Sequence record: MK962753.1
Direction: 5' to 3' (one strand)
Length of the DNA: 64,000 nucleotides
From: Shigella phage JK32
Below are positions 3,207 to 59,902 of this stretch, piece by piece. Numbering within the stretch: position 1 is the stretch's first letter; the number at the start of each line of letters is the position of its first letter. Both the position numbers and the translations under genes were made by a program. The notes beneath the pieces are model-generated. The model saw nothing but the letters and a program-made list of their open reading frames with translations, was not told where the DNA came from and did no database searches.

Positions 3207-5030
3207 TTATGATTGCATCCAAATTTTGCGTTGATCTGCATCTTCACTATAGAGCAAATCGAATAGCTCTTTATAGTTTTCCGGTAACGTGATGATCTCC
3301 ATTACAGGATCGTTGATCACGCGATGATAATCTGATTCTGTGAGCGATGCTAAACCTTTGATATATCGAATGTTGTAACCTTTGATATTATCGCGATCGT
3401 TCTCGAAATCTTCTAGGTCATAATACCATCGAACATCATCACCTTTCTTTGGTTCCGCAATGATAATAGGTGTTTTGATAAACCGGATTCGTCCATCTTC
3501 GAACAATTCAGGCCAACGAGCAAAGAAAGAGATCAGACTAGGCTTAATAGACCCGATCCCGTCAGTATCAGCGTCCGTCATAATCGCAATATTTTTGTAT
3601 TGCATAACTTCCAGTGCATCAACACCAAATTGCAAACCAGTGATCGCCATGATGTTAAAAATTTCGGCGTTCTTAACGATCTTTGCCTCTGGTTGTTCCC
3701 ACGTTGTAAGAGTTTTACCTCGCAACGGGAAACCGCCATGTAAATCTTGATCACGTACAGAGATCAGATAGTTGATCGCGGAATCACCTTCCGTCAAGAA
3801 CAGGGTAGTTTCTGCGTCAGTTCCAATAAGGTTAGCTTTAACGTGTTTTGCTACCTTAGCCCGTTTTGCTGCCTTTGCTGCCTTAGTCGCTGCCGCTTTA
3901 TCTGCTGCCTCTTTGCGTGCCAAAACTACAGCAATAATAGGCATGATAATGTTTTCTTTCTTCGCAATGACTTTAGCCAGTTTTTTAAAATCCAGATCAA
4001 TGTGTCGCTTGATATCACCAGTTGGATTAGTCAAGCGTTCTTTTGTCTGTGAATCAAAACGAAGGTTAGGCAATTCACGAACAATAAGAATACAGGTCAA
4101 TCCAGACTTAACCGCAGCTTTAGTAACATCAACCTTATATTCTTTCTTGATTCGTTTTACAATCTCTTCACAAAGATCATCTGTCACGTAGTCTACGTGT
4201 GTTCCCCCGTTTTTGGTAAACAGACCATTAGCAAAGGATACTGATTTAAAACCTTCTCCCTCGACCGCAGGAACTAGGGCAAGTGAAAAGTTTTTATCCT
4301 CGATGACAAACGGATCATCATTGTATAGTTTAGCATAATCCTTGAATTTGCTTGTTATCTTTTTGCCGTTAAATTTAAACGTGATCTTAGGAAAGATTAC
4401 ACTCAATGAATACATTCGGTCGCAAATCACATCTGAAATTTCTTGTGACATGATCATACCTTCAAAATGATCGAAATCGGGGCAGAACGTAACCTTAGTT
4501 CCTTTCAGTTTTGACGGCTTAGATGACCAGCTAATATTTTCTGCACCATTGGTACATTGAACGGTCAGTTCATTCTCTCCGTCACACGTCACACCAGTAA
4601 ACCAGGACGAGAAAAATGATGTGAGCGCGCTTCCGATCCCATTCATACCCATAGTAACACGATTTGTATCATCAAAGTTAGACCCTGCTTTAGCTCGTGT
4701 CCATGCAGCAACTGGTTGTGGAATCTGTTTCCCTTCTGGCGTCGTAACAATATGTTGCGGAATACCGCGACCATTATCTGTTACTGACACAATGTTATCT
4801 TTTATATCCACACTAATAACATTAGCGTACTCAAAATTAGTGCGGATCGCCTCGTCTACCGAGTTGTCGATGATCTCATCAATGATTTTAACCAGTCCAG
4901 GAACGTATGAAACTTTGGTCCATTTTCCAAATAGGAAACGATTGTGTGATTCATAAGTCGTTGACCCGATGTACATTGAAGGTCTCTTAAGACAGTGAGC
5001 GCGATCATCTAACAGCAAAAATTCAGACAT
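3207..5030 (-). CDS. 39: DNA topoisomerase II large subunit, single-gene form (equivalent to T4 gp39 plus gp60)
   Basis: 607-aa ORF; GyrB-like ATPase N-terminus and Toprim-like C-terminal region in one frame; size matches fused 39/60 of T4 relatives. Confidence 0.85.
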   Translation of the reverse strand: MSEFLLLDDRAHCLKRPSMYIGSTTYESHNRFLFGKWTKVSYVPGLVKIIDEIIDNSVDEAIRTNFEYANVISVDIKDNIVSVTDNGRGIPQHIVTTPEGKQIPQPVAAWTRAKAGSNFDDTNRVTMGMNGIGSALTSFFSSWFTGVTCDGENELTVQCTNGAENISWSSKPSKLKGTKVTFCPDFDHFEGMIMSQEISDVICDRMYSLSVIFPKITFKFNGKKITSKFKDYAKLYNDDPFVIEDKNFSLALVPAVEGEGFKSVSFANGLFTKNGGTHVDYVTDDLCEEIVKRIKKEYKVDVTKAAVKSGLTCILIVRELPNLRFDSQTKERLTNPTGDIKRHIDLDFKKLAKVIAKKENIIMPIIAVVLARKEAADKAAATKAAKAAKRAKVAKHVKANLIGTDAETTLFLTEGDSAINYLISVRDQDLHGGFPLRGKTLTTWEQPEAKIVKNAEIFNIMAITGLQFGVDALEVMQYKNIAIMTDADTDGIGSIKPSLISFFARWPELFEDGRIRFIKTPIIIAEPKKGDDVRWYYDLEDFENDRDNIKGYNIRYIKGLASLTESDYHRVINDPVMEIITLPENYKELFDLLYSEDADQRKIWMQS

Positions 5031-5036
5031 ATTATA

Positions 5037-5795
5037 TCATTCTCCGTCAGTTCGTTTCAGGTATTCCAATGCCGCATATAATCTTTGAGGATCGTCTTTG
5101 AACATCCCTAATCCGGCATTACATTTTCCACAAAGAACACCTCTTATCTTACCAGTCTTATGATTATGGTCAAGATGTTTCCACTTTTGGCGTTTTCTCT
5201 CGCCGCATCGTTCATTTATGAATTTTACACCGCATATCTCGCAATTGTCAACTCTGCCTAAAATTTCTAACGCTTCTCTTTTTGATATTTTTATACCATT
5301 TTCGGCATGATGATATGGCCTATCTAGTTCTCGCTCTCGCTTCTCAAACAATCGACACTCATCAGAACAATACTTTTGAGATGCGTTTATTGCAACAAAT
5401 GGTTTACCACATTTAGCGCATTCTCGTTCAATCTTTATGTTTTGTGCCTGGTCCAACGATGCGCAACGAGAACAGCAAAATTTATGATAGCCTCTAGAGT
5501 ATGTATGATAATTTACAGGATTTGGGCATCTTGCACACTTAACTATTCCTGTTATTCCGTGGCGCAATCTATAAACAGCCTCGTTATATGGTTGTTGATT
5601 TCTGAGACCTCCATTACAGAACTTAAACTCATTCCTTATAATCTGAAATTCCGCAGGATACAATTTTTCCATTTCTGGAATTTTATTTTCTTTAAAAAGA
5701 TTTGAGTTTAGTCTATTTCCGCTTTTCGCCTCCAGAACATCAACAATGAACTTTTTGATGTTCACTTTTCTCTCTCCAATACATAACATAACCAT
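5037..5795 (-). CDS. endonuclease VII-domain nuclease with N-terminal Cys-rich zinc-finger region (mob-like)
   Basis: C-terminal DHNHKTGKIRGVLCGKCNAGLG resembles T4 endonuclease VII catalytic region; multiple CxxC pairs. Confidence 0.55.
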   Translation of the reverse strand: MVMLCIGERKVNIKKFIVDVLEAKSGNRLNSNLFKENKIPEMEKLYPAEFQIIRNEFKFCNGGLRNQQPYNEAVYRLRHGITGIVKCARCPNPVNYHTYSRGYHKFCCSRCASLDQAQNIKIERECAKCGKPFVAINASQKYCSDECRLFEKRERELDRPYHHAENGIKISKREALEILGRVDNCEICGVKFINERCGERKRQKWKHLDHNHKTGKIRGVLCGKCNAGLGMFKDDPQRLYAALEYLKRTDGE

Positions 5796-5867
5796 AACTT
5801 ACTGCAACCGCCACAAAGACGGCTGCAACAATCATATTAAAAATTGAGTGATTGTCAAGTATATGAC

Positions 5868-6041
5868 TCATGACACGCGCACATTTTTATCGTAATACCC
5901 GCCATTAATCCCGCGCGGGGCGGTTAATCCCTGTTTGCATTCTTTACCACATTCAGGGCATTCTGCCTTTTCACGCTCGGAAATTTTGCGGATTTTCTGA
6001 AATTGACCGTGTTCTTCACAAGAATAATCATATAATGGCAT
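5868..6041 (-). CDS. small zinc-ribbon protein (FmdB-like CxxC...CxxC)
   Basis: ORF trimmed to MPLYDYSCEEHG start preceded by AGGGGA; two Cys pairs. Confidence 0.45.
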   Translation of the reverse strand: MPLYDYSCEEHGQFQKIRKISEREKAECPECGKECKQGLTAPRGINGGYYDKNVRVS

Positions 6042-18006: not shown

Positions 18007-18146
18007 CATTATGTTCAGCGCGGTTCGCTACTCCCGCGCCCGTTCTCTTGCGAACTGCTACATGTCACCATGTAGATCAGACTATATCACATTCTCATAG
18101 AGAATCCTGCCATTTCGAATCGCTTGATTCTACTCTACTCGGTTCG

Positions 18147-18971
18147 TTACCCTTTCGATAGTCGTTGAACAACTGCATCTTTAAGCTCATTTTGATCAAA
18201 CGGTGTTCTCTTACAGTACCCGCTATAATTCTTAGCAAAAGGTTTCTTCTTACCAAAGATCTCTTTTCCTGAATTATATGCTTCAACAAGAAAATTCACC
18301 ATTTCATCAAATGTGAAACTTGCAAATTTAGCATAAGTTTCATTACGTTTTGACATTATTTTACTCATAACTTCCGGTCGTTTAGACGCTGAATTTTCTC
18401 GTTTCTCGCCAGTATTAAATGATACTAACTCACCGGAAACATATCTAGGATCGTCACAACTAACTCTAAACCGATTTCCTTCCTTATCCTTAACGATAAC
18501 AGTATTCTTTAGCTTTTCTGCCATAGAATCAAGACCTTTTCGTATAGTGTCCTCATCAGCCCCGAAATATTTCTTTCCGCTCATATCGGTTCTGGCTTTT
18601 CCGGTCTTGTTTTCGGATATTTTCCGTCTAACTTCCTCTCGCTTGGCTGGGTTATTGTCTCCAGCGAATGCATCTTTGGTTAACGCCTTCACTTTATCGT
18701 CATAAGACCCTCTAGAGATGAAAGCATATGCTCTCTTACACTCACCGTTATTGAATATTAAACACAACAACCGATGCGCCTCTACATGGTCTTCAAACTT
18801 TAGTCTTACGAGATTCCATTTATCTAACCGATGTTCAGGAAACATGGACTTCGGGCATATATGATGCACCTCGGAATATTCTTCACCCTGATACGGATTA
18901 GACACCAGTTTAATGTAGTCGTTTAATGCTTCCTCGTTATGTATTTCGTACTTTCTTAAAATGTCTTTCAT
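18147..18971 (-). CDS. intron-encoded HNH homing endonuclease
   Basis: EVHHICPKS...N...H HNH motif; start set at ATG (MKDILRKY) preceded by GGAGG, ORF track starts upstream at a non-ATG codon. Confidence 0.7.
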   Translation of the reverse strand: MKDILRKYEIHNEEALNDYIKLVSNPYQGEEYSEVHHICPKSMFPEHRLDKWNLVRLKFEDHVEAHRLLCLIFNNGECKRAYAFISRGSYDDKVKALTKDAFAGDNNPAKREEVRRKISENKTGKARTDMSGKKYFGADEDTIRKGLDSMAEKLKNTVIVKDKEGNRFRVSCDDPRYVSGELVSFNTGEKRENSASKRPEVMSKIMSKRNETYAKFASFTFDEMVNFLVEAYNSGKEIFGKKKPFAKNYSGYCKRTPFDQNELKDAVVQRLSKG

Positions 18972-18994
18972 CTCGCGCCTCCAATGTATATCAA

Positions 18995-19002
18995 TATTTA
19001 TA
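18995..19002 (-). promoter_or_regulatory. late promoter consensus TATAAATA upstream of intron ORF
   Basis: Exact TATAAATA on minus strand about 24 nt upstream of the endonuclease ATG. Confidence 0.5.
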
Positions 19003-19120
19003 TACATTATAAGACACGTTAGCTCAAAATGCAACTGCTGCTGATTGTCTCCTTAGAGATTTCCCAGCAATTAAGCAGGTTATTCGATCACTGTCACCAG
19101 TGAAAGCCCCATATCAGTTT

Positions 19121-27200: not shown

Positions 27201-28235
27201 CTAACTTTTTGCGCTATTTACTTCGGCTAAAAGTTCATCAGAAATACGCTTGACCGCCGCAAGTTCTTCCGGTTCTAGGTTTTGTTCTTCCAGATATTCA
27301 TAGACCATCTGAATAGTGCTTTTAACTTCAATAACACCTGTTTCCTGTGATGCGCTACTCTCCAGCTTATGGACCACTTTTAGCTTGTGTACAACGGCCT
27401 CTAATGCGCTTTCTAACTTAGTTAACCCATTATCAGCGACCGTTGCGATAAGACGCACACTAAGCCCCTTAAAGCGTTCTACATCGATTTTATCATCTGA
27501 CGGGTAAGTGATACGCACATGATAAGTTTTGTCATTCTGGATAAACTCTTTTTTGTGTGTATCGGTATCGAATACCCAAAAACCACGCGGATCATTTTCG
27601 TCACCCGCCGTTAGTGTGTATGGTGTGCCAATATACGTTACGTTACCACCATCGCTGATAGTATGAAAGTGACCAGAAAACACTTCACGGTATTTCTTGA
27701 GGAAGTCCGCGCTATAACCTTCAGATTTTAGCCCTTTATAGAAATAGTAACCGGACAATTCCCAATGGCCTACACAATATTCGCTGAATGAGTTTTGAAT
27801 AAACTCTAAAATCTCTGATTTATTGTCATCACAAAACCACGGGAACAGATCAAATGATACACCATCAAAGGTAACTGTTTCCGGTTTATCGATAACCTTA
27901 ATGCAATCATACTGGCTTAACACTTCACGCGGTGCGTTAGGCTGGATCTTGTTTCGTTTAAACATATCATGGTTCCCGACCGTGATATAACAAGTAATAC
28001 CAGCCTCTTCCAGTAACGGGATGATTTTCGTTCTATTAAAACGCATAGTTGCATGTGTGATTGCTTTTCGGCAATCAAACCAGTCCCCTGTCTGAATCCA
28101 TGCCTTAATATTATGTTTTTTTGAATAATCGACTGCCTTTTTAATAGTATCAAGAATATACTCATGTATCCACGGATCATCGTTGCCGATACCAGTATGC
28201 AGATCACCCAAAAGCAAAATTTTCATATTATACAT
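27201..28235 (-). CDS. 47: recombination nuclease subunit (Mre11/SbcD-like phosphoesterase)
   Basis: 344-aa ORF; LLGDLHTG and GNHD phosphoesterase motifs. Confidence 0.85.
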   Translation of the reverse strand: MYNMKILLLGDLHTGIGNDDPWIHEYILDTIKKAVDYSKKHNIKAWIQTGDWFDCRKAITHATMRFNRTKIIPLLEEAGITCYITVGNHDMFKRNKIQPNAPREVLSQYDCIKVIDKPETVTFDGVSFDLFPWFCDDNKSEILEFIQNSFSEYCVGHWELSGYYFYKGLKSEGYSADFLKKYREVFSGHFHTISDGGNVTYIGTPYTLTAGDENDPRGFWVFDTDTHKKEFIQNDKTYHVRITYPSDDKIDVERFKGLSVRLIATVADNGLTKLESALEAVVHKLKVVHKLESSASQETGVIEVKSTIQMVYEYLEEQNLEPEELAAVKRISDELLAEVNSAKS

Positions 28236-28241
28236 AATCTC

Positions 28242-28796
28242 CTAAAAATTTTTAACACCATATTCACCAAAATAAAGATCAACCGCTTTGTCATAAGCTC
28301 TGGCCGCATCTTCTTCGTTGACATAATACCCAAGAGATATTAGTTTATCATTATTTCGTATTCTTGCAACCCATTTCTTCGTATGTTTATGCCAGCTAAC
28401 CCCTTTATACTTGCTTGCTTTATTCTTGTACTTTCCAACGTTACAAGCATTTTTCTTTGCGTCGGACTCTCTAAGATTGCGTGGTGCGTTGTTTAAAGGA
28501 TTTCGGTCTATATGATCTATAATTTCTGGTTGTGTTCCATGCTCAAGAAACCATACAATACGATGTACATATGGCTTTAAAACCCTCCCATTATCCATAA
28601 CAATTGCAATTTGGAGATGATCCTGACTTTTAAAAGTTTTTACTTTATCTCCTGCCTTATAAAACTTTCCTTCGTAATTCTTTCCTCCGGCTCGGCTATT
28701 CTTTAAATGATAAAGAATACCATCGTCGTCATGTCTATATCTTTCTCGTATAATTCGTTGCGTTTCTTCATCCCACAATTTGGAACGTCTACTCAT
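28242..28796 (-). CDS. free-standing HNH endonuclease with AP2-type DNA-binding domain
   Basis: HRIVWFLEHG...IDHIDRNPLNN HNH core plus YKGVSWHKHTKKWVARI AP2-like segment. Confidence 0.65.
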   Translation of the reverse strand: MSRRSKLWDEETQRIIRERYRHDDDGILYHLKNSRAGGKNYEGKFYKAGDKVKTFKSQDHLQIAIVMDNGRVLKPYVHRIVWFLEHGTQPEIIDHIDRNPLNNAPRNLRESDAKKNACNVGKYKNKASKYKGVSWHKHTKKWVARIRNNDKLISLGYYVNEEDAARAYDKAVDLYFGEYGVKNF

Positions 28797-28840: not shown

Positions 28841-28865
28841 AAAAATAAAAAGGGAAACCCCTTTC
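28841..28865 (-). terminator. putative terminator hairpin (approximate)
   Basis: AAAGGG/CCCTTT stem followed by T-rich run on minus strand. Confidence 0.3.
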
Positions 28866-28886
28866 AGAGTCTCCCTTATAAAGCCA

Positions 28887-35228: not shown

Positions 35229-35762
35229 TTATTTTAAATTTTTTCGAATGTATTCAGACCATTCTCTGCCAGTAAGTTCGGTCCCATTCTGGAAACTGAA
35301 ATATTCATACGGCATCGAGTCAAGATAAAACAGGATCATACATCGCGCCATATAATACCAATCACGATTAAAGTAAACTACGTTATCGCCAGTACCATCA
35401 ACCCCTTTATCATAACCATCGCGGGTACGGGCGACCCATTGAATAGTATCATTTTTCTCACGGATAGTAACAGGTTCCCAATATCCAGCACAGCCAGCAT
35501 GACCACACGAACAAGTAAGGAAATATTGACCTTTTGCTTTGTTGTCATCCCATTCACGATGAATTGGTTCGATTTCGTGAAACAGTGCCAAGCAATCATG
35601 ATTATGCAACACTGGCTTACCATCAATCAATGCATGGAATGTATGCAAACGACCAGTAGACAAATAGCTATCCTCACGCTCAACCAGTTCAATAGCAATC
35701 TTTTTAGCTCGTTCTTTGTGTCGTTGTGCTTTACGCTTACGGTTTAATGATTTCATACTCAC
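35229..35762 (-). CDS. hypothetical protein
   Basis: 177-aa ORF. Confidence 0.4.
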   Translation of the reverse strand: MSMKSLNRKRKAQRHKERAKKIAIELVEREDSYLSTGRLHTFHALIDGKPVLHNHDCLALFHEIEPIHREWDDNKAKGQYFLTCSCGHAGCAGYWEPVTIREKNDTIQWVARTRDGYDKGVDGTGDNVVYFNRDWYYMARCMILFYLDSMPYEYFSFQNGTELTGREWSEYIRKNLK

Positions 35763-35775
35763 CTCACAATTTCAA

Positions 35776-36309
35776 TTAGCAACGATACTGCACATTATCA
35801 AAATGAGAATGTACATTACCGATGGTATAGATCAAAAATCCCTCGTCCGGCGATTGCACCACAAATTGAGTAGGTCCAACTGCAACAACCTTAAACACAC
35901 GATCACTAACTTTGTGTTTAATCTCTGCGCCAACTTCCAAAGGAACAAATTTTACTGTGGAAAGTTCAATACCAAAACCATCATCATGCAAACGAATAGG
36001 TTTATTGTTATCGATCATTTTCACATATTCAAGATCATACAATTCGCGGGTGCTATCAGTGTAAACCAATACTGTATTGTTATGATAACGAATTACATAC
36101 ATGTTATGGTCATCATCAAGTACACATAAATTACGAATCGGTGTACCCTCTCCTTTTTTACTCCAACAGATATTAACCACATTACCTTGAATTGTGAATG
36201 GCTTAGACGTTCCGAAAGTCGCTAAAGTGCTTTCTCTCATCTGGACGGTTACGCGAGTCCCAATAGTCAGCGGCTTAAAATCATACCCATTAGTCAGTAC
36301 ACAAAACAT
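35776..36309 (-). CDS. hypothetical protein
   Basis: 177-aa ORF. Confidence 0.4.
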   Translation of the reverse strand: MFCVLTNGYDFKPLTIGTRVTVQMRESTLATFGTSKPFTIQGNVVNICWSKKGEGTPIRNLCVLDDDHNMYVIRYHNNTVLVYTDSTRELYDLEYVKMIDNNKPIRLHDDGFGIELSTVKFVPLEVGAEIKHKVSDRVFKVVAVGPTQFVVQSPDEGFLIYTIGNVHSHFDNVQYRC

Positions 36310-36341
36310 AATGTTATCCTCTCTTTGTTTTCGATGTGAGC

Positions 36342-36369
36342 ATTATACATTAGCTAATCAGGTTGTCAA
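36342..36369 (-). promoter_or_regulatory. early sigma70-like promoter (minus TTGACA 36369-36364, TATAAT 36347-36342)
   Basis: Hexamers, 16-nt spacer. Confidence 0.5.
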
Positions 36370-36374
36370 CACCT

Positions 36375-36407
36375 AAAAACGAAAAAGCCGACCCTTTCGG
36401 ATCGGCT
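36375..36407 (-). terminator. rho-independent terminator after nrdD (stem AGCCGA/TCGGCT, UUCG-type loop)
   Basis: Hairpin plus T-run on minus strand. Confidence 0.5.
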
Positions 36408-36412
36408 AAAAA

Positions 36413-38275
36413 TTACATGTGCTTAACGCGGTTTACCATCTCAGAGTGTTTCCCGTGGTTAAATGGACGCAGATCAACAGACCCAAGATATCCACTAACG
36501 CGACGGATAACATTCATCTTTTCCAGATTGTCATTGCCGCAATCAGGACAAACAAAACCAAACTCGGTCGCTCTCATTTCCTTAGTAGATCCGCATACAT
36601 GACATACATCAGAAGGAGTATTAACACCGAAGTAGTGCAATTTATCCATTGCATAATCTACTACGGTTTCAAGCCCTTTCAGGTTGTTTTTCATGTCTGG
36701 GAACTCAACATAAGAGATCATACCACCGGACGCCAGCCAGTGATAATCTTTCTCAAAGTCGATTTTCTCAAACGGTGTGACTTTCCGGTCTACGTCAAGG
36801 TGGAATGAGTTGGTGTACCAGTCTTTATCGGTAGCACCCTTAACAATACCAAATTGCTCTCGGTCCAGTCGATTAAATCGATAGCAAAGGCTTTCGGCTG
36901 GCGTACCGTAAAGACTAAACCCAAGTCCGGTTTCGTCCTTCCATTTTTCAGTATAATGACGCAAGATCTTAAGAATATGTTTACCGTATCGCTGCGCTTC
37001 TTCCGAATCAAACGGATGAACACCAAACAGGACGCTCAATACTTCATGTAAACCAATATATCCAAGCGAGATACTAGCGCGACCATCTTTCAGCACTTCC
37101 AAAATTTCATCGTTTTGATGGATACGGAAAAATGCACCTTCTGTATACAGCACCGGAGCAACATTGGCTTTAGCCCCTTTTAAAGCGTCTACGCGACTCA
37201 TCAGCGCATCAAAGCAAATAGGCATACGATTAGCCAGCTCTTGTTCGAATAGCTCAATTCTGCGCATTACAGACGCTTTACCAGCACGACGCGCGGCAAT
37301 AAGAGCAATACGCGGAAGATTCAGAGTCACAACACCTAAGTTATTACGTCCGTCTAATACTTCTTCGCCTTTCTCATTATGCCACACACCCAGGAAGCTA
37401 CGACAACCCATCGGGCTAACCGGAACACTAGATCCAGTGATACTACGGTTATTCTTCGCAGAGATATAATCAGGGTAAAGACGCTTACTAGAACATTCCA
37501 ATGCAAGTTGCTTAATGTCGTAGTTCGGATCTTCCGGTTTAAGGTTTAATCCTTCTTCTAAGAACATCACCAGCTTAGGAAACACCGGAGTGATACCATC
37601 TTTACCTAAACCTTTAGTTCGAACGTTCAGGATCGCTTTCTGAATCAGTTTTTCTTCCCAGCTAGTACCCATACCAAAGGTTAAAGTCACAAAAGGCGTT
37701 TGACCATTGGTAGAGAACAAAGTGTTGATCTCATATTCCAACGCCTGATATCCGTCTAACGTTTCTTTTTCTGTCTTCTCTTGTGCATAGAGAGTATCAG
37801 CTTTGATTCCGTAGGTTTCGGCATCAGCAAGGTGTTTATGATATGTTTTCTCAACGTATGGCGCTAAAACCTGATCAATGTTTGCTATGGTAGTTCCGCC
37901 ATATTGATGACTTGCCACCTGTGCGATAATTTGAGCGGTTACAGCACATGCAACACCGATTGATTTCGGACTTTCGATTTGTGCACTACCCAATTTAAAA
38001 CCATTCTCTAACATGTCTTTGAGATTAACAAGACAGCAGTTAGTAAACGGCATAGCGGGTGCATAATCCATATCATGATAATGAATATCACCGTCTACAT
38101 GCGCTTTATAGATGTGCTCAGGTAACACGGTTTTAGCAATCTGTTTAGACACAGCGCCAGCAATCAGATCTCGACGTGTCGGGAATGTTCGCGCGTCTTT
38201 GTTCGCGTTCTCTTTGCTTACTTCGTTTTCTTTACCCGTTGCGATCTCTGTAATGTCTTTGATTAGTTTTTCCAT
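36413..38275 (-). CDS. nrdD: anaerobic ribonucleoside-triphosphate reductase
   Basis: 620-aa uninterrupted ORF; C-terminal Zn ribbon (CHVCG...CPDCG) and glycyl-radical region (VIRRVSGYLG). Confidence 0.9.
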   Translation of the reverse strand: MEKLIKDITEIATGKENEVSKENANKDARTFPTRRDLIAGAVSKQIAKTVLPEHIYKAHVDGDIHYHDMDYAPAMPFTNCCLVNLKDMLENGFKLGSAQIESPKSIGVACAVTAQIIAQVASHQYGGTTIANIDQVLAPYVEKTYHKHLADAETYGIKADTLYAQEKTEKETLDGYQALEYEINTLFSTNGQTPFVTLTFGMGTSWEEKLIQKAILNVRTKGLGKDGITPVFPKLVMFLEEGLNLKPEDPNYDIKQLALECSSKRLYPDYISAKNNRSITGSSVPVSPMGCRSFLGVWHNEKGEEVLDGRNNLGVVTLNLPRIALIAARRAGKASVMRRIELFEQELANRMPICFDALMSRVDALKGAKANVAPVLYTEGAFFRIHQNDEILEVLKDGRASISLGYIGLHEVLSVLFGVHPFDSEEAQRYGKHILKILRHYTEKWKDETGLGFSLYGTPAESLCYRFNRLDREQFGIVKGATDKDWYTNSFHLDVDRKVTPFEKIDFEKDYHWLASGGMISYVEFPDMKNNLKGLETVVDYAMDKLHYFGVNTPSDVCHVCGSTKEMRATEFGFVCPDCGNDNLEKMNVIRRVSGYLGSVDLRPFNHGKHSEMVNRVKHM

Positions 38276-38319: not shown

Positions 38320-38814
38320 TTATTTTACCAGTTCTGCTAATTCTTTTTCCGCCGCTTCCAGTTCAGCTTTCAGTTGTTTAATCTCTTGTCGCTTCTTATT
38401 AGCGGCTTCCTGCTTACTATTTCGGATAACCTGATCTAGATATGAATCCCACTCCTGAATATTTTTGATAATGTAACCGTCAACGTTCAGAACTTTAATA
38501 TTAAGAACTTCTTCCAGCTTACTTAAAGAACGTTGTGTTTCGGGGAAGAAATAGTCATATTCACCTCGGTCAAACCAGTAGCGTATGCCAGCTTTATCTA
38601 AACGACGATGCAATTCATCAAAATCTCTACCATCTTCGACGATGAGTTTGTCTACATCGCCATTACAGTTAACAGAGACTTTGAATCTAATATTATCAAC
38701 CCCACCAAAAACATCAATAAGGATAGTTCCTATCGTGTTATCCGCGCTTCCAGTATCCATAAAAGATTCTAGTTTTTCTTGATTAGTAACGTACCAAACA
38801 TCTTGTTTCCACAT
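38320..38814 (-). CDS. paralogous family protein (coiled-coil tail)
   Basis: 164-aa ORF; C-terminal QEIKQLKAELEAAEKELAEL. Confidence 0.4.
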   Translation of the reverse strand: MWKQDVWYVTNQEKLESFMDTGSADNTIGTILIDVFGGVDNIRFKVSVNCNGDVDKLIVEDGRDFDELHRRLDKAGIRYWFDRGEYDYFFPETQRSLSKLEEVLNIKVLNVDGYIIKNIQEWDSYLDQVIRNSKQEAANKKRQEIKQLKAELEAAEKELAELVK

Positions 38815-41019: not shown

Positions 41020-41508
41020 CTATCTTAATCTTTGTATAAATTGTTTCTTATACTTCTTCGTGATCTCTTCTCTTGTATCCGCGTCGCAGTAATCGAAACC
41101 TTCTGCGTCCATAATAGCAACCATCTCCGCGCGTGTCAAGCGTGAAAATCGTTTTACTTTATCAACAGCATATTGAGGATGTAAATGATTGTTGGTGTAG
41201 TCTCCTTTGATGTAATTAACATAGTTTGTAGCCCAAACAACGAAATCAGCACCTAAAGCACCAACACCAAACCGTTTAAAGTCTCCAGTCAACGATCCTT
41301 CTAGGCGGTTGCAACACGAATGAAGCAATCCCCTTACGCGGCCTTGCCCTTTCCCATCTAGATCGTGGTCGTGGTCAAGATGGTTTTTGCTCATATCCTC
41401 AAAAAGTGGCAATTGACAAAGGGGGCAATTGCCCCCCTGTTTTTCGAATAGTTCTTGTTTGTACTCTTTAGCACTCTTAGCAGTCAGTAACATAAATTCA
41501 CCCTCCAA
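41020..41508 (-). CDS. 49: recombination endonuclease VII (Holliday junction resolvase)
   Basis: NHLDHDHDLDGKGQGRVRGLLHSCCN matches T4 gp49 catalytic region; collinear. Confidence 0.85.
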   Translation of the reverse strand: MEGEFMLLTAKSAKEYKQELFEKQGGNCPLCQLPLFEDMSKNHLDHDHDLDGKGQGRVRGLLHSCCNRLEGSLTGDFKRFGVGALGADFVVWATNYVNYIKGDYTNNHLHPQYAVDKVKRFSRLTRAEMVAIMDAEGFDYCDADTREEITKKYKKQFIQRLR

Positions 41509-46992: not shown

Positions 46993-47002
46993 CAACTAAA
47001 AA

Positions 47003-47029
47003 CAAAAAAGGCTACCCCGAAGGATAGCC
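47003..47029 (-). terminator. putative rho-independent terminator after adhesin-like gene
   Basis: Imperfect GC hairpin with UUCG-type loop followed by T-run on minus strand. Confidence 0.4.
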
Positions 47030-47036
47030 CATAAAA

Positions 47037-47816
47037 TTACACGCGAGCACCGTAGATCGTGCCTACTTTATCCCAGCGAGGGGCATTGCCAGTAACAGCC
47101 TTACCAGCCGCTCCGCCATTATATTCCGACCCCTGTCCACGGATATTACATTTACCACCAGCACCACCAGCATCACCACCGTTACCGCCATTATATACAC
47201 CGTTGACAGACCCCTTACCTGGCGCGGAAATAGTACCAGCAGTAGCACCCCGTTCCATATTAGCAGACCCACCGGCAGCACCAAATGGACGACCGCCACC
47301 TCCACCAAAAGTCAATTTCATTTGTGAAAAAGGAGAATAATACCCGCCGCCACCGCCGCCACCACCGCCGCAAATAGCGCCGTTATTTGTGATGCGTAAG
47401 CGTGTGCCTATACCGTTGTTAATTGCATTACCACCAGCACCACCAGCGGAGTTATTGCCACCATTACCACCACGCCCCCAAACATGAACACCTGCGTTAA
47501 TGATCAATGTTACATATTCGTTTGTTAACGAGCTAGGGAAGTCAAGACAAGGAACGCCAGTAGATTGGGAAACAATATTACCTGTGATAGTAATTACTAC
47601 CGGAGTAGATCCTTGTGCTTTCATCCAGTTAATAAGAGTGTCTTTATTGTAAGAGTTACTAGCGCCAATGCTATAATGAATCTCTTTAGAGCGTCCGACC
47701 ATCGCCGACATATACGCCGGACGACCTAAGCGAACAGCTTGCATTGCGGCGCTCATCCACCGTTGACCAGTCTCGGACACAGCCGATGATCCGACCCAAC
47801 CTGCTTTAATTGCCAT
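47037..47816 (-). CDS. glycine-rich protein resembling T2-type gp38 tail-fibre adhesin
   Basis: 259-aa ORF; N-terminus MAIKAGWVGSSAVSETGQRWMS and repeated glycine-rich motifs (GRGGNGGNNSAGGAGGNA, GGGGGGGGGY, FGGGGGRPFGAAGG) recalled as typical of T2/T6 gp38. Confidence 0.45.
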   Translation of the reverse strand: MAIKAGWVGSSAVSETGQRWMSAAMQAVRLGRPAYMSAMVGRSKEIHYSIGASNSYNKDTLINWMKAQGSTPVVITITGNIVSQSTGVPCLDFPSSLTNEYVTLIINAGVHVWGRGGNGGNNSAGGAGGNAINNGIGTRLRITNNGAICGGGGGGGGGYYSPFSQMKLTFGGGGGRPFGAAGGSANMERGATAGTISAPGKGSVNGVYNGGNGGDAGGAGGKCNIRGQGSEYNGGAAGKAVTGNAPRWDKVGTIYGARV

Positions 47817-49450: not shown

Positions 49451-51589
49451 TTAAGGATTTCGGCCAGGGTAATGCTTAAATCGACCGTAACCAGTTTCAA
49501 TGCTCATATCTCGTTGACGCACAATCGCCCAATAACCGTTGCAGGAATCTTGAAGATATAGATCCTTACCTTTTAGGAACTCATTAAAAATAGTGATCTG
49601 CCAATCATAATAGACCGCATCAGCAAGACTACCCATCCAACCGTGCGGATCTTCCATCAGTTCGACAAGTTCATCAATTACCCAATATGGACAAGGGCTA
49701 AATTTACCCTTACTAAAATCGCTGAACATAGTAACGATCTTGACTTCCGGTCGAGGCTGATCGGGAATATCTGGACGTTTGTTAACTACGACTTGCACAT
49801 ATTTTGTGTAGCCTACAATTTCACCTTCATCTAAGTTAGTGTTATTGTTTTTGTCGGCAAATGCAACAAATTTGTAAACACCAGAATCGTTTAATGTTGC
49901 ATTAGCTTTACGATATACCGGAACACTGGAATCTGCAATAGGTAATTTAATACCACTTTTACTAAATTCATAGGTCGGCACATAGTTAGATGGCGGTTTA
50001 ATCATGGTTGCTTCCAGCACCAACGGATCACCCTCAGTAATTTGCACCGGATGCGGACCGTCAAATTCCATATTAGGAATTACTTCAACTTTATAGGTTG
50101 CACGTCCTGCAATATCATATCCGGTATGCGCACTATGAGGATCTCGGCTAGGGCTATCGCGATATTCATGAGACCAGATACCATTATGTTCTTTATCCGC
50201 CGCATCAGTAATCTTATATTCTTTCGTTTCAATCGGCAATTCTGTTACAAGAACATCGTTTTTCAAAATTGCTAACGAACGAGTTTGAGTCGGGTCATTA
50301 CTTGCTGGCGGTTCTGGATCAACAATTTTAATAACAATAGGTTCCCCAACCTCAATACCGCTATAATCATGCTCGACGTCATAGATATCTAACATACGGC
50401 GATCATAAAATAATGGGCGAGAAGTTGGAGTTCTCTGCGGATCATCATCACGCGCAGGAGCTACCAACAATTGCAGGGCTACACTATTATCATATTGCAA
50501 TTTCTCAAGACTAATACGGTCATAACCAGGATCACCATATTTCTTGCTTTGTAATTGCGTACCACCTAACATCCACGTAAAGTAGACATTATTTGTTAAT
50601 AAACCATAATGTCGGTTCCATGAATTATCAACAGGGGAAACTGGCATATCAATACTAACAGAAGACCCAGAAGGATAACGAAATTCAATAGCAGAAAAAT
50701 CTCGGCTAAAAAATTCGTTTTCCTTGACGTTAACGCGGAATCGATGGCGCTGACCATCCAGATACGATTCACTACTACCAGGACCATTTTCAACCTTATA
50801 GGAACGAATACAAGCGACATAATCACCTGCATCTGCTTCGGTAGCATGTTTCGTCACATATAAAGTTTTATTCTTTGATTCATAAACCAAAGTACCATCG
50901 CCACGTTCCAGACGATAACGAACTATGGTATGTTCAGCGTCATTTGGGGCATCGTCTTCTACAGTATAATAGGCAGGTGCATATTTTTGTACATTGAATA
51001 CAGCTAAATTTTCTCGAATTGTTGCTGTAAACGGATATACAAATTTAACATCACCTGTTTCGTCGCTTAATTCCATTCGATAAAGACCGGAAAATTCAGG
51101 CCATGCGAATTTTGCAATTTTAAATTCACGATGATCCAATCCCAAATCACCATCCACGGAATCAACTAGACCATTATTATAATACAAGTCAACAGAGATA
51201 TTAGCAGGAATATTACTACGAAAAACAATTTTCGCTTTAAGTTCATCACCAATATTAAATGATGTCGGAGGATATACATGTTCAACATATGGATTATCAA
51301 ATAACTTAAATGTAAAGTTTTCCGTGCCAATATCGATAGAATCACCACTAAATGATGTGTCGCCTAGCGCATAACCTCGAACGTTTACAGACCATCCGGT
51401 AACATCGTCTTCTTTAACGGAATCCAATGTAAATGTCGGAGAGGCACTTGTTGCTATAATCTGGTCATTTTTCTTCCAGACATAACCTTTTTTCGGTTTT
51501 GTTGAATCAGGGCTTTCATCAACAATACAGCAGCTAAAATCGTGCGGCATCCAAATCATATTATTGACCGTGGTGTTTACTACTGCCAT
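49451..51589 (-). CDS. large protein with probable Ig-like repeats (possible virion decoration or fibre protein)
   Basis: 712-aa ORF; recurring D.G.Y...F/C segments (DAGDYVACIRSY, DSGVYKFVAF) suggest Ig-like beta-sandwiches; inference. Confidence 0.35.
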   Translation of the reverse strand: MAVVNTTVNNMIWMPHDFSCCIVDESPDSTKPKKGYVWKKNDQIIATSASPTFTLDSVKEDDVTGWSVNVRGYALGDTSFSGDSIDIGTENFTFKLFDNPYVEHVYPPTSFNIGDELKAKIVFRSNIPANISVDLYYNNGLVDSVDGDLGLDHREFKIAKFAWPEFSGLYRMELSDETGDVKFVYPFTATIRENLAVFNVQKYAPAYYTVEDDAPNDAEHTIVRYRLERGDGTLVYESKNKTLYVTKHATEADAGDYVACIRSYKVENGPGSSESYLDGQRHRFRVNVKENEFFSRDFSAIEFRYPSGSSVSIDMPVSPVDNSWNRHYGLLTNNVYFTWMLGGTQLQSKKYGDPGYDRISLEKLQYDNSVALQLLVAPARDDDPQRTPTSRPLFYDRRMLDIYDVEHDYSGIEVGEPIVIKIVDPEPPASNDPTQTRSLAILKNDVLVTELPIETKEYKITDAADKEHNGIWSHEYRDSPSRDPHSAHTGYDIAGRATYKVEVIPNMEFDGPHPVQITEGDPLVLEATMIKPPSNYVPTYEFSKSGIKLPIADSSVPVYRKANATLNDSGVYKFVAFADKNNNTNLDEGEIVGYTKYVQVVVNKRPDIPDQPRPEVKIVTMFSDFSKGKFSPCPYWVIDELVELMEDPHGWMGSLADAVYYDWQITIFNEFLKGKDLYLQDSCNGYWAIVRQRDMSIETGYGRFKHYPGRNP

Positions 51590-57150: not shown

Positions 57151-57744
57151 TTAAACGTATTCAGCAACAACATTATGTTTAAAATTACCGCTCATTTTTG
57201 GATTTGGATTTTTCAATCGACTATGTATTAAATTTTTGTTGTATCCGGTTGCTTTAGACGCTTCGCCAATACTTTGATAAACAACACCATTAACACGAAT
57301 CGGACGAGACTTATTAAACAGTTTATTCAATCCGGCATCATATGCATGGTTTTGGTTTTCTTGTCTCGTTGCGATCTCAAGATTCCAAACACAATTACAA
57401 GATTTTACCCCACTTTTATGATTAATTTCAAGCCCTTCACAATCACCTATAAAGTGTTCAGCGACTAGTCTATGAATATAGCGATATTTCTTAGTTTCCC
57501 CGTCATGCAAGCATACATTATAATAACCATCACCAGCGCGTTTAGGTCGGAGTAGTTTACCTTTAACACGTTTTATAGTAGGGAACTCACCAAATTGATT
57601 TCGCTGGACAAACGAAATCTCGCGGTCTAATGAACGGATTCGACCATAGTTAGACACTTGATAAAAACTTTCATAGCCTTTAATTGGCTTCCATATCTCA
57701 GGGATTTCTACACCATCAATAACAACAAGTTTAAATTCTTCCAT
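57151..57744 (-). CDS. free-standing HNH endonuclease (NUMOD4-like N-terminus)
   Basis: YQVSNYGRIRS segment plus HRLVAEHF...INHKSG...N HNH core. Confidence 0.6.
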   Translation of the reverse strand: MEEFKLVVIDGVEIPEIWKPIKGYESFYQVSNYGRIRSLDREISFVQRNQFGEFPTIKRVKGKLLRPKRAGDGYYNVCLHDGETKKYRYIHRLVAEHFIGDCEGLEINHKSGVKSCNCVWNLEIATRQENQNHAYDAGLNKLFNKSRPIRVNGVVYQSIGEASKATGYNKNLIHSRLKNPNPKMSGNFKHNVVAEYV

Positions 57745-57794: not shown

Positions 57795-58208
57795 TTACAT
57801 AGATTCCGTAAAGGTACGGGTGATGATATCAAGTTGTTGTTCGCGTGTCAAGGCGTTGAATCGGGTAGCATAACCACTGATTCTAATAGTCAGTTGTGGG
57901 TATTTTTCAGGATTTTCTAACGCATCAAGAAGAGTTTCCCGACGCAGCACGTTCGCGTTGAGATGATGACCAGCGTTACTATTTACCCCGTTATCAATTG
58001 CTACAGGACGGAAGCTAGTTGTGTGTAGTGCCAGCGAATCGACGTCTTCTGCGGTGATCACATGGTCTTCTGCGAAAGTTTTACTAACAATTACTTTAGC
58101 GCCGATCAGTGCTTTCGGTTCGGATACCAGAATCATAGGCGCGAAATGTCCACCGATAATAGTACCTTTATGCTCACCTTTCATGATTTGAATTGCTTTA
58201 AATTCCAT
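57795..58208 (-). CDS. autonomous glycyl radical cofactor-like protein (GrcA/YfiD-like)
   Basis: C-terminal [12 protein letters not shown]...[33 protein letters not shown] closely resembles E. coli GrcA and the glycyl-radical RVSGY motif. Confidence 0.65.
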
Positions 58209-58891: not shown

Positions 58892-59467
58892 TTATTTTGG
58901 ATCTGGGAAATTCAATAGAGCATATTCTCCATAAAATTTCCTAGCTGCATTATCATAAGCGATTGCAGCTTCGATTTCTGTGTCATATTGTCCAAGAACA
59001 TGTCTTTGTAGGTTGACCATTATACTAGCTCTCCATTTCTTACGCAAATCCTTCCTGTTACACTTACTAACACCCTTATACACACTAGAAAACTTTTTAG
59101 ACTTCTTCTTTCTATTATGTTGATTTTGCGCGTCGGTTGCCTCCCTAAGATTTGGAGGATTGTTATTAGCAGGATTACCGTCAATATGATCAATTAATCT
59201 AACTTGCGTCCCATGTTCTAGAAACCAAACAACCCTATGCACGAATAGATGAACTCTAGGAAGACCGTCATCTCTACTATGCCAAAATCTAAGATGACCA
59301 TCTTTATTTGTTCTGACTTTAACTAAATCGCCGTGTTTATATCTACTCCCTAATGGTCGTCCTTTGATAGCTTTACTATCGACTCTATAATATAAGATAC
59401 CCTCTATATGAGCATATCTAAGTTTTATCTCGTTTTGTAGGGATTCATCCCAATATTTAAAGGTCAT
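58892..59467 (-). CDS. free-standing HNH endonuclease with AP2-type domain (paralog of 28242-28796)
   Basis: HRVVWFLEHGTQ...IDHIDGNPANN and YKGVS...WRASI segments. Confidence 0.65.
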   Translation of the reverse strand: MTFKYWDESLQNEIKLRYAHIEGILYYRVDSKAIKGRPLGSRYKHGDLVKVRTNKDGHLRFWHSRDDGLPRVHLFVHRVVWFLEHGTQVRLIDHIDGNPANNNPPNLREATDAQNQHNRKKKSKKFSSVYKGVSKCNRKDLRKKWRASIMVNLQRHVLGQYDTEIEAAIAYDNAARKFYGEYALLNFPDPK

Positions 59468-59512
59468 TTTATAATCCTCACAAAGCCAGCGATTAAGCTG
59501 GCTTTATTTTAG

Positions 59513-59902
59513 TTATACCGGGTCTGGATATACCTTTTTATCGAGTTCCATATGCGGTCCGTCTTTAAAAGTAACCCAATCAACACCGCAGATAACAGGA
59601 ACACCCAATTCTCGACCAGCTTGTTTAAATGCATCAGCGATCATGCGGTAATATTTCATGTTCCATGTATCCTTATCTTTAGGATACGCTACAACGTCAA
59701 CCGCGAAACCGTGAAGATGACGAGATTTCATAGTCTTAGATTTACCTTCCGCAACATATTTCTTTTGCGTTTCTAGACTACGCACACCTTCCGTAATACC
59801 AAAATCGACCGGAGTCAGTTCTAATGCACGATGAACGACTTTTACTAGGTCTGGATGTACACCAACAAGCCGATCTTTGCTTCTTTGAGATAATTTAAAC
59901 AT
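59513..59902 (-). CDS. endolysin, peptidase M15-type (L-alanyl-D-glutamate peptidase-like)
   Basis: SRHLHGFAVDV and DGPHMEL zinc-binding motifs; 129 aa. Confidence 0.7.
   Translation of the reverse strand: MFKLSQRSKDRLVGVHPDLVKVVHRALELTPVDFGITEGVRSLETQKKYVAEGKSKTMKSRHLHGFAVDVVAYPKDKDTWNMKYYRMIADAFKQAGRELGVPVICGVDWVTFKDGPHMELDKKVYPDPV

Follow-up and report, generated by a model that had tools for sequence, protein, structure and literature searches.

A probable homing endonuclease gene of the HNH-AP2 class and the recoded gene 47 patch linked to it in RB49-like phages

A few RB49-like phages carry an HNH-AP2 open reading frame between a-gt.4 and the start of gene 47, and most of their relatives have nothing at this position. 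This raises the question of how such a gene comes to be there: by the activity of its own product, by recombination that carries it along passively, or by descent from an ancestor that most lineages have since pruned. To address this question, we analyzed a stretch of 64,000 nucleotides from Shigella phage JK32 (MK962753.1; hereafter the window), which covers the early genes of a Krischvirus (RB49-like) coliphage and carries five homing endonuclease genes (HEGs). From its first base, in rIIA, the window is collinear with the initial 64 kb of RB49, and its minus strand is home to all substantial ORFs. The original prediction had counted five endonuclease genes in these 64 kb, and all five ORFs were recovered on the minus strand, with the predicted domains, by Pfam and PHROG (Table 1); an NCBIfam search returned no model for any of the five proteins. 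Our population counts refer to 58 Krischvirus (RB49-like, T4-type) records that match the window at 90–98% identity. These records come from the GenBank phage collection, which was used for the statistics instead of IMG/VR, where a scan with gp47 yielded two Krischvirus loci only. Divergence profiles were obtained by affine-gap pairwise alignment and from BLAST. The closest record over the first 33 kb of the window is Escherichia phage MIZ4 (97.2%), and the best-matching record shifts from region to region. Compared with RB49, the largest insertion in the window is a 712-aa ORF (49451–51589) that is not an endonuclease element; four other large insertions are endonuclease elements, and most of the large insertions by which the window genome differs from RB49 appear to be due to such elements.

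The focal protein matches two Pfam families, HNH_3 at residues 76–117 (44.7 bits against a cut-off of 24.8) and, C-terminally, AP2 at residues 128–171 (41.0 bits against a cut-off of 33.3), and it falls into the PHROG family phrog_99, 'HNH endonuclease' (E = 1.4e-50). Six homologs from three genera all share residues D94-H95, N107, and N116, and the AP2 part resembles the AP2 domains of the plant proteins WRI1 (E = 9e-10) and TEM1 (E = 2e-4). An AlphaFold2 model, computed from an alignment of the two window paralogs only, has a mean pLDDT of 49.8; its only confident part is the AP2 domain, with a three-stranded sheet and a helix (pLDDT 75–84), and the nuclease half is modelled with low confidence. 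As we read it, the protein would join an I-HmuI-type HNH_3 nuclease module to a C-terminal AP2 DNA-binding domain, the latter presumably supplying sequence recognition. The gene differs in no material way from RB49 ORF040c (98.9% amino-acid identity; 100% for the MIZ4 protein), with which it shares its length, its HNH_3 plus AP2 architecture, and its site between a-gt.4 and gene 47, and the window thereby provides a third independent carrier backbone. Homologs at about 46% identity adjoin gene 46 in RB16 and in Slopekvirus phages, which suggests that the 46/47 operon is a recurrent landing area for the HNH-AP2 family. Magnani et al. in 2004 are said to have described the HNH-AP2 class of homing endonuclease genes. 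For RB49 ORF040c (AAQ15315), the 2003 annotation reads 'similar to HNH endonuclease; DNA-binding AP2 domain'. ORF040 later appeared among the AP2-HNH mobile elements of Nolan et al. (2006; PMC1524935), and Arbiol et al. (2010; PMC2839356) referred to it as an HNH-AP2 homing endonuclease; among the homing endonuclease genes tabulated for T4-related genomes, HNH-AP2 is one of the classes (Petrov et al., 2010; PMC2993671, Table 5). Both the focal gene and the class to which it belongs have been described before, and such elements are familiar from this phage group: the literature of 2004 to 2010 covers HNH-AP2 genes, their occurrence in RB49, and the contribution of HEGs to T4-type mosaicism. In our literature searches we found no biochemical study of any phage HNH-AP2 enzyme and, in the published accounts of RB49 ORF040c, no mention of the linkage to gene 47 described below. 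We propose that the focal ORF is, in all likelihood, a free-standing HNH-AP2 homing endonuclease gene that spreads by intronless homing between co-infecting Krischvirus genomes; its enzymatic activity, the position of its target, the kind of break (nick or double-strand cut), and homing itself are all things that we infer here.

The anatomy of the insertion fits this proposal. The 570-bp insert precisely separates the ribosome-binding site of gene 47 from its start codon, which is most likely the ATG at 28226 given in the RB49 annotation. The ends of the insert share only 4–5 nt of microhomology (ATGA/TCATA), and its junctions are identical among the occupied genomes compared. Because the insert is placed between that ribosome-binding site and the ATG, the endonuclease gene uses what was originally the ribosome-binding site of gene 47, and its TAG stop falls in a new AGGAG that now precedes gene 47. 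RNA folding of the leader of the focal gene revealed no unusual stability (z = -1.3). A different account would make the ORF passive cargo of a hyperplastic region, passed between genomes by general recombination, whether homologous or illegitimate, as might happen through promoter-stem-loop (PeSL) motifs, with the nuclease idle in the spread; the protein may then be inactive, an AP2-type DNA-binding regulator, or a weapon against competitors. Most indels between RB49 and Phi1 have indeed been tied to PeSL motifs (Arbiol et al.; PMC2839356), a hairpin followed by a promoter-like -10 element stands just upstream of the focal insert, and many mosaic patches in the window adjoin no HEG. However, this hairpin and -10-like element are the only ones near the insert and belong to flanking sequence that empty genomes have in common, and no direct repeat of at least 10 nt was found to bracket the 570 bp; a PeSL-PeSL route is disfavoured for these reasons, and we rejected a PeSL cassette as the source of the focal gene. 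The exact placement between ribosome-binding site and ATG, the intact and invariant HNH catalytic residues, and the tight linkage to a recoded stretch of a neighbouring conserved gene, which is a hallmark of a site-specific nuclease, also weigh against passive spread, to which we give little credence.

This linkage emerged when carriers were compared with non-carriers. The focal gene is present in 4 of the 58 records (RB49 twice, MIZ4, and MIZ5). When three carriers were aligned with four non-carriers over 6 kb, 17 fixed differences separated the two groups; all but one of them, 16 in number, fall into a single patch of gene 47 (28116–28185), and there are none on the a-gt.4 side of the insert. 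The changes in the patch are mostly at third codon positions, which differ in 10 of 11 consecutive codons, and include five amino-acid replacements. Database-wide, the interval 28090–28232 is at least 99.3% identical to the window in carriers (4 of 4) and 82.6–88% identical in non-carriers (54 of 54), with the surrounding 4 kb at about 96–98% in every record. Within the patch, carriers are at most 0.74% apart and about 14% from non-carriers. Distance matrices of the 2-kb flanks revealed no clustering of carriers on either side, and the nearest relative of each carrier on at least one flank is a non-carrier (RB49 and ECD7, 0.76%; the window and L003, 1.29%; MIZ4 and Phi1, 2.25%). The focal gene and about 136 bp of gene 47 are an island of roughly 0.7 kb with a genealogy of its own. 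The backbones in which it is embedded appear to recombine freely, and this pattern, which is exactly what intronless homing predicts, supports our proposal; the perfect linkage to the patch is seen in three independent carrier phages and possibly reflects a single historical event.

The same distribution might also result if the ORF were ancestral to Krischvirus, deleted in most lineages, and retained by the three carriers. The direction of change is undeterminable from presence and absence alone, and precise loss of HEGs does occur, as the ORF deletion in the JSE intron and the carrier-type flank without a HEG in G37-3 illustrate. However, all 54 empty records share a clean junction of ribosome-binding site and ATG together with the non-carrier patch, and a carrier-type patch without the ORF occurs in none of them (0 of 54), so that repeated independent deletions are unlikely. 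Moreover, the carriers are not monophyletic in the flanking 2 kb, and lateral movement of the island would be needed anyway; paralogs of the family at many sites in Krischvirus and Pseudotevenvirus/Slopekvirus genomes point to repeated insertion. We therefore regard an ancestral origin as highly improbable. If the focal gene spreads by intronless homing, its nuclease would nick or cut a gene 47 allele that lacks the HEG, most likely within about codons 14–37. The phage's own recombination machinery would mend the break with the HEG-bearing genome as template, and this repair would transfer the 570-bp cassette and, with it, the recoded part of gene 47 next to it, which would shield carriers from the nuclease they encode. 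The break may be a nick and not a double-strand cut, because the HNH_3 relatives I-HmuI and I-PfoP3I are nickases (PMC3428280).

We consider the gene 47 patch itself a candidate target and immunity site or a candidate co-conversion tract. A tentative reading is that the substitutions in 28116–28185 mark the recognition and cleavage site, just after the Mre11-type phosphoesterase motif I, and that GGTGGCG would be the contact of the AP2 domain. This heptamer of the empty allele corresponds to GGCAACG in carriers, and a preference of AP2 domains for GC-rich sites has been stated (PMC10448857, citing Magnani et al., 2004); as a clue to AP2 recognition, the pair would be only a lead. It is somewhat doubtful that the patch is instead a co-conversion remnant of a divergent donor and that the enzyme cleaves outside it, say at the insertion point or towards a-gt.4. 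On the one hand, 16 changes in about 70 bp, five of them amino-acid replacements, are more than immunity should need, and the tract of about 730 bp at the site of the endonuclease-VII-like gene (see below) looks like imported DNA. On the other hand, carriers and non-carriers agree in all of the about 40 bases that separate the focal insert from the patch, where an unbroken tract from a donor about 14% divergent would be expected to differ, the a-gt.4 side lacks fixed differences, and no donor-like gene 47 sequence was found among 50,697 phage records, the next best matches being about 70% identical. Since these identical bases separate the patch from the insert, and given the five amino-acid changes, the patch could also be a pre-existing divergent allele that became linked by chance.

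Table 1. Coordinates of the features discussed in the text (positions in the window).
Feature	Coordinates	Strand	Basis or remark
Gene 39, 5' part	4300..5030	-	11-32% divergent per 100 bp (about 730 bp) in genomes without the endonuclease-VII-like gene
Free-standing endonuclease-VII-motif (DHHRN-type) gene, between 39.2 and topoisomerase gene 39	5037..5795	-	
Probable group I intron, 1114 nt, in gene 43 (DNA polymerase)	18007..19120	-	Splits PolB motif A codons (DLTSLYPSI)
Intron-encoded HNH endonuclease ORF, 274 aa	18147..18971	-	PHROG phrog_12434 'HNH endonuclease', E 1.7e-129
Gene 47 (Mre11/SbcD-like recombination nuclease subunit)	27201..28226	-	RB49 and MIZ4 annotation; adjoins the focal gene
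Recoded gene 47 patch, about codons 14-37	28116..28185	-	16 differences fixed between carriers and non-carriers
Insertion, 570 bp relative to empty-site genomes	28227..28796	-	Junction alignments of the window and RB49 (occupied) with Phi1 (empty)
Focal free-standing HNH-AP2 gene, probable homing endonuclease gene, 184 aa	28242..28796	-	Pfam and orthology with RB49 ORF040c
Terminator-like hairpin between a-gt.4 and the focal gene	28850..28877	-	Present in occupied and empty genomes
Gene 49, true endonuclease VII resolvase	41020..41508	-	Endonuclease_7 and Endonuc-dimeris domains; comparator, not mobile
NUMOD4-HNH free-standing gene, between nrdC.11 and vs.6	57151..57744	-	Pfam, PHROG
vs.6, 3' end	57795..58000	-	27-31% divergent from RB49, which is without the NUMOD4-HNH gene
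Second HNH-AP2 gene, 191 aa	58892..59467	-	Pfam and alignment with the focal protein
Second HNH-AP2 cassette	58908..59551	-	Inserted within the endolysin 3' end (junction comparison)

The other four elements, which occupy separate sites, are best explained as mutually independent mobile elements of broadly this kind, as judged from their sequences and distribution. The second HNH-AP2 protein aligns end to end with the focal protein at 45% identity (E = 8e-31), which upholds the original description of the two as paralogs; it matches HNH_3 with 40.2 bits and AP2 with 25.2 bits, the latter under the 33.3 cut-off. Its gene is present in 13 of the 58 records at 99–100% nucleotide identity, on backbones that are only 93–95% identical over the surrounding 6 kb, which points to recent spread. 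The gene had been placed upstream of the endolysin gene; we found it transcriptionally downstream instead, inserted in the last endolysin codons. Along with a hairpin and a ribosome-binding site, the cassette supplies recoded endolysin codons (about 25, ending in ...YPDPV*) in place of the original last ones, and its own ORF terminates on the old endolysin tail, PDPK*. The endolysin locus exemplifies how a homing cassette can substitute the 3' terminus of its host gene.

The NUMOD4-HNH protein (NUMOD4, 66.9 bits; HNH_3, 40.3 bits in Pfam) is encoded in 8 of the 58 records, and RB49 has 17 nt at this site instead. The endonuclease-VII-motif protein matches Endonuclease_7 (58.5 bits) in its C-terminal residues 183–247 only, behind an N-terminal half that is Cys-rich with CxxC motifs, and its translation contains the motif LDHNH...R...CN (LDHNHKTGKIRGVLCGKCN), in which the endonuclease VII residues D, H, H, R, and N are present. 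The resolvase dimerisation domain was not found in this protein. In the window, gene 49 alone has the dimerisation domain of T4 endonuclease VII, and it sits at the same place in RB49, MIZ4, and pEJ01, so that the predicted distinction between this gene and the true resolvase stands. The endonuclease-VII-like gene occurs in 12 of the 58 records, with homologs at 40–45% identity in VR7, RZ, and TH15. Relative to MIZ4, the window copy has a 1-nt indel near its 5' end that leaves 252 instead of 277 aa, and G37-3 lacks the gene yet has the carrier-type gene 39 tract.

The fifth element had been called an intron endonuclease, and this assignment is supported: the ORF lies inside a 1114-nt insert in gene 43 that resembles group I introns, and removing the insert in silico restores the DLTSLYPSI frame as in the uninterrupted gene 43 of RB49. 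The intron follows an exonic U and ends in G (...TCCCT / AAACTG...AATG / GTATCC). Its ORF, for which Pfam gave no match, sits in a peripheral loop and overlaps the 3' intron core. No Rfam model matched the window at gathering threshold; the intron scored 30.4 bits against RF00028 (E = 1.5e-5; gathering score 50), a value below gathering because the ORF sits in the intron loop. In JSE, the same intron occurs at the same site with a 644-nt deletion of the ORF and 97–98% identity in the shared parts, and this ORF-deleted form matches the full length of RF00028 with 42.9 bits (E = 8.5e-9). It was noted by Petrov et al. (PMC2993671) as a putative 'relic' intron of JSE gene 43 whose endonuclease gene is truncated. 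The window and 11 of the 58 records, in contrast, keep the intron with its full 274-aa ORF; the ORF-deleted intron is found in two further records, both of JSE. In the window, MIZ4, and JSE, the exon preceding the intron ends in CTT ACT TCC CT, whereas intron-less alleles read TTA ACA AGT CTG, and the intron-bearing alleles have six synonymous changes in these last four exon codons.

Across Krischvirus, the insertion points are polymorphic for presence and absence, in agreement with the original prediction that relatives would differ there: each of the five genes is found in 4–13 of the 58 records, and none of the records holds all five or the full insertion set of the window. The finding that was to refute the prediction, all five genes at the same sites in every relative, is clearly not what these records show. 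The elements assort independently. MIZ4 has four of the five, RB49 has the focal gene only, G5211 and FL04 have three each in different combinations, and for the pair of endonuclease-VII-like gene and intron all four combinations of presence and absence are seen. Five such genes in 64 kb are not exceptional, because pEJ01 also has five in the same interval, partly at different sites. Its extra endonuclease genes lie upstream of gene 39, between 40 and uvsX, and between nrdC and dam, and two of these adjoin tracts of 18–25% divergence; its copy of the second HNH-AP2 gene is frameshifted. Together with the JSE intron ORF, the indel in the window, and G37-3, this frameshift appears to represent the stages of decay expected of a homing cycle, which supports mobility of these elements. 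The broader suggestion that homing has driven the mosaicism of these genomes holds in part. It is supported by the genealogy of the island, by the spread of the elements, and by their decayed copies, but strongly divergent patches also occur where no compared genome has an endonuclease gene (e.g. 35751–36500 and 38501–38750). In a permutation test of flank divergence, five of nine endonuclease sites ranked in the top 2–15% of random positions, a moderate enrichment, and about 10% of random positions had one flank of more than 17% divergence. Because many divergent patches adjoin no endonuclease gene, we consider homing to be one driver of the mosaic and not its sole cause.

Similar arrangements are known from other phages. 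T4 SegF, SegG, and MobE are established examples of intronless homing, with co-conversion that starts from a cleavage site close by (PMC2993671; PMC2790892), and the focal gene resembles them in being intergenic, adjacent to a conserved core gene, and variably present, with differences in its neighbour linked to carriage. However, SegF and SegG are GIY-YIG enzymes and MobE is an HNH enzyme of another subfamily without AP2, whereas the focal protein combines HNH_3 with AP2; in addition, activity and homing of the T4 enzymes have been shown experimentally, and those of the focal gene are read from sequence. The HNH_3-type intron-encoded nicking endonucleases I-HmuI, I-HmuII, and I-PfoP3I reside in DNA polymerase introns of SPO1-like and T7-like phages (PMC3428280). 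Their motif (D-H ... N ... N) recurs in the free-standing HNH genes of the window, and the window also has an HNH ORF in a probable group I intron at a conserved polymerase motif; the free-standing genes differ from them in using AP2 or NUMOD4 as DNA-binding modules, and the intron ORF differs in having no Pfam match. F-CphI of cyanophage S-PM2 defines the 'DHHRN' family with an endonuclease VII motif (PMC6083498). The gene at 5037–5795 is likewise free-standing and variably present and encodes a C-terminal endonuclease VII motif without a dimerisation domain, but the Cys-rich N-terminal half of its product is unlike F-CphI.

The new value of these observations is modest and consists of the candidate target in gene 47 and the replacement of the endolysin tail. 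For annotation, the window offers an intact polymerase intron endonuclease of which only a relic remains in JSE, and its split gene 43 is better annotated as one spliced gene. For the HNH-AP2 family, the 4 carrier and 54 empty records amount to a natural experiment that points to a candidate target of about 70 bp in gene 47. If 28116–28185 is indeed the target, this would be the first time, as far as our literature searches reach, that the natural target of a phage HNH-AP2 enzyme has been defined, and the two gene 47 alleles would provide a ready pair, one sensitive and one immune, for testing how the ancestor of the plant AP2/ERF domains reads DNA.

The focal cassette (the HNH-AP2 gene 5' of gene 47) affects how its neighbour is annotated. 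Its 3' end yields a sigma-70-like element on the minus strand (window 28227-28255, TTAAAA-17-TATAAT), a promoter-like match that is not above chance expectation, and adds an in-frame ATG (MYN-MKILLLG) just 5' of the gene 47 start. Because the cassette creates both this upstream element and this ATG, ORF callers place the gene 47 start at two different positions, as seen in the RB49 versus the MIZ4 annotation.

Further HNH-type genes were found in pEJ01, which carries three additional ones, each at a position where the window has no such gene (see table). The HNH-AP2 paralog among them shares 44% identity with the focal protein, and the other two adjoin tracts of 18-25% divergence in uvsX and dam.

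At the endonuclease-VII-like gene, comparison of G37-3 with window 4300-5800 showed that this phage is missing the gene and has a gene 39 5' tract of the carrier type (0-7 mismatches per 100 bp versus the window, compared with 11-32 for RB49). The G37-3 locus is a candidate for an allele that either has lost the endonuclease gene or is naturally resistant. A 1-nt indel (window 5760-5870) distinguishes the endonuclease-VII-like ORF from its MIZ4 counterpart and moves its 5' end: the window and phage Skers versions both have 252 aa, the MIZ4 version 277 aa.

We also observed variation on both sides of nrdD, which is flanked by two ORFs covered by divergent patches: window 35751-36500 and 38501-38750 diverge by 25-35% from each of RB49, MIZ4, and pEJ01. 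No endonuclease gene adjoins these patches in the compared genomes, and they look like allelic replacements. The gp38 tail-fibre adhesin is a host-range determinant whose variation is independent of endonuclease genes: MIZ4 lacks the gene at this position (911 bp versus 37 bp), and its 3' half (window 47001-47500) diverges by 15-23% from RB49 and pEJ01. At the position of a 712-aa ORF in the window, the interval is just 191 bp long in RB49, MIZ4, and pEJ01. The sole family signals of this ORF are a weak C-terminal Ig-like/Hoc-like match (Pfam Ig_3, E 0.009; phrog_1149, E 4e-6). Only five other Krischvirus records encode it, at only 73-78% amino acid identity, a divergence far greater than that of the backbone, and Phi1 keeps a 62-aa C-terminal remnant.

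Coordinates of the compared features (L018, pEJ01; L021, RB16; L022, Matisse)
Feature	Location	Strand	Window equivalent	Context
ORF, phrog_14838	window 35776-36309			patch 35751-36500
ORF, phrog_15067	window 38320-38814			patch 38501-38750
gp38 adhesin gene	window 47037-47816			
712-aa ORF	window 49451-51589	-		insertion between ORF084-like gene and rI.-1
HNH-AP2 paralog	L018 2642-3205		~3205	upstream of gene 39
HNH-type gene	L018 14623-15372		~15170	between gene 40 and uvsX
HNH-type gene	L018 40329-41084		~41800	between nrdC and dam
HNH-AP2 relatives	L021 781-1311, 2995-3570			
HNH-AP2 relative	L022 3067-3549			

In RB16 and Slopekvirus phages, relatives of the HNH-AP2 gene lie on either side of gene 46, in the 47/46 and 46/45.2 gaps. 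Across three genera, this family is therefore attracted to the 46/47 recombination-nuclease operon, with the exact sites differing.
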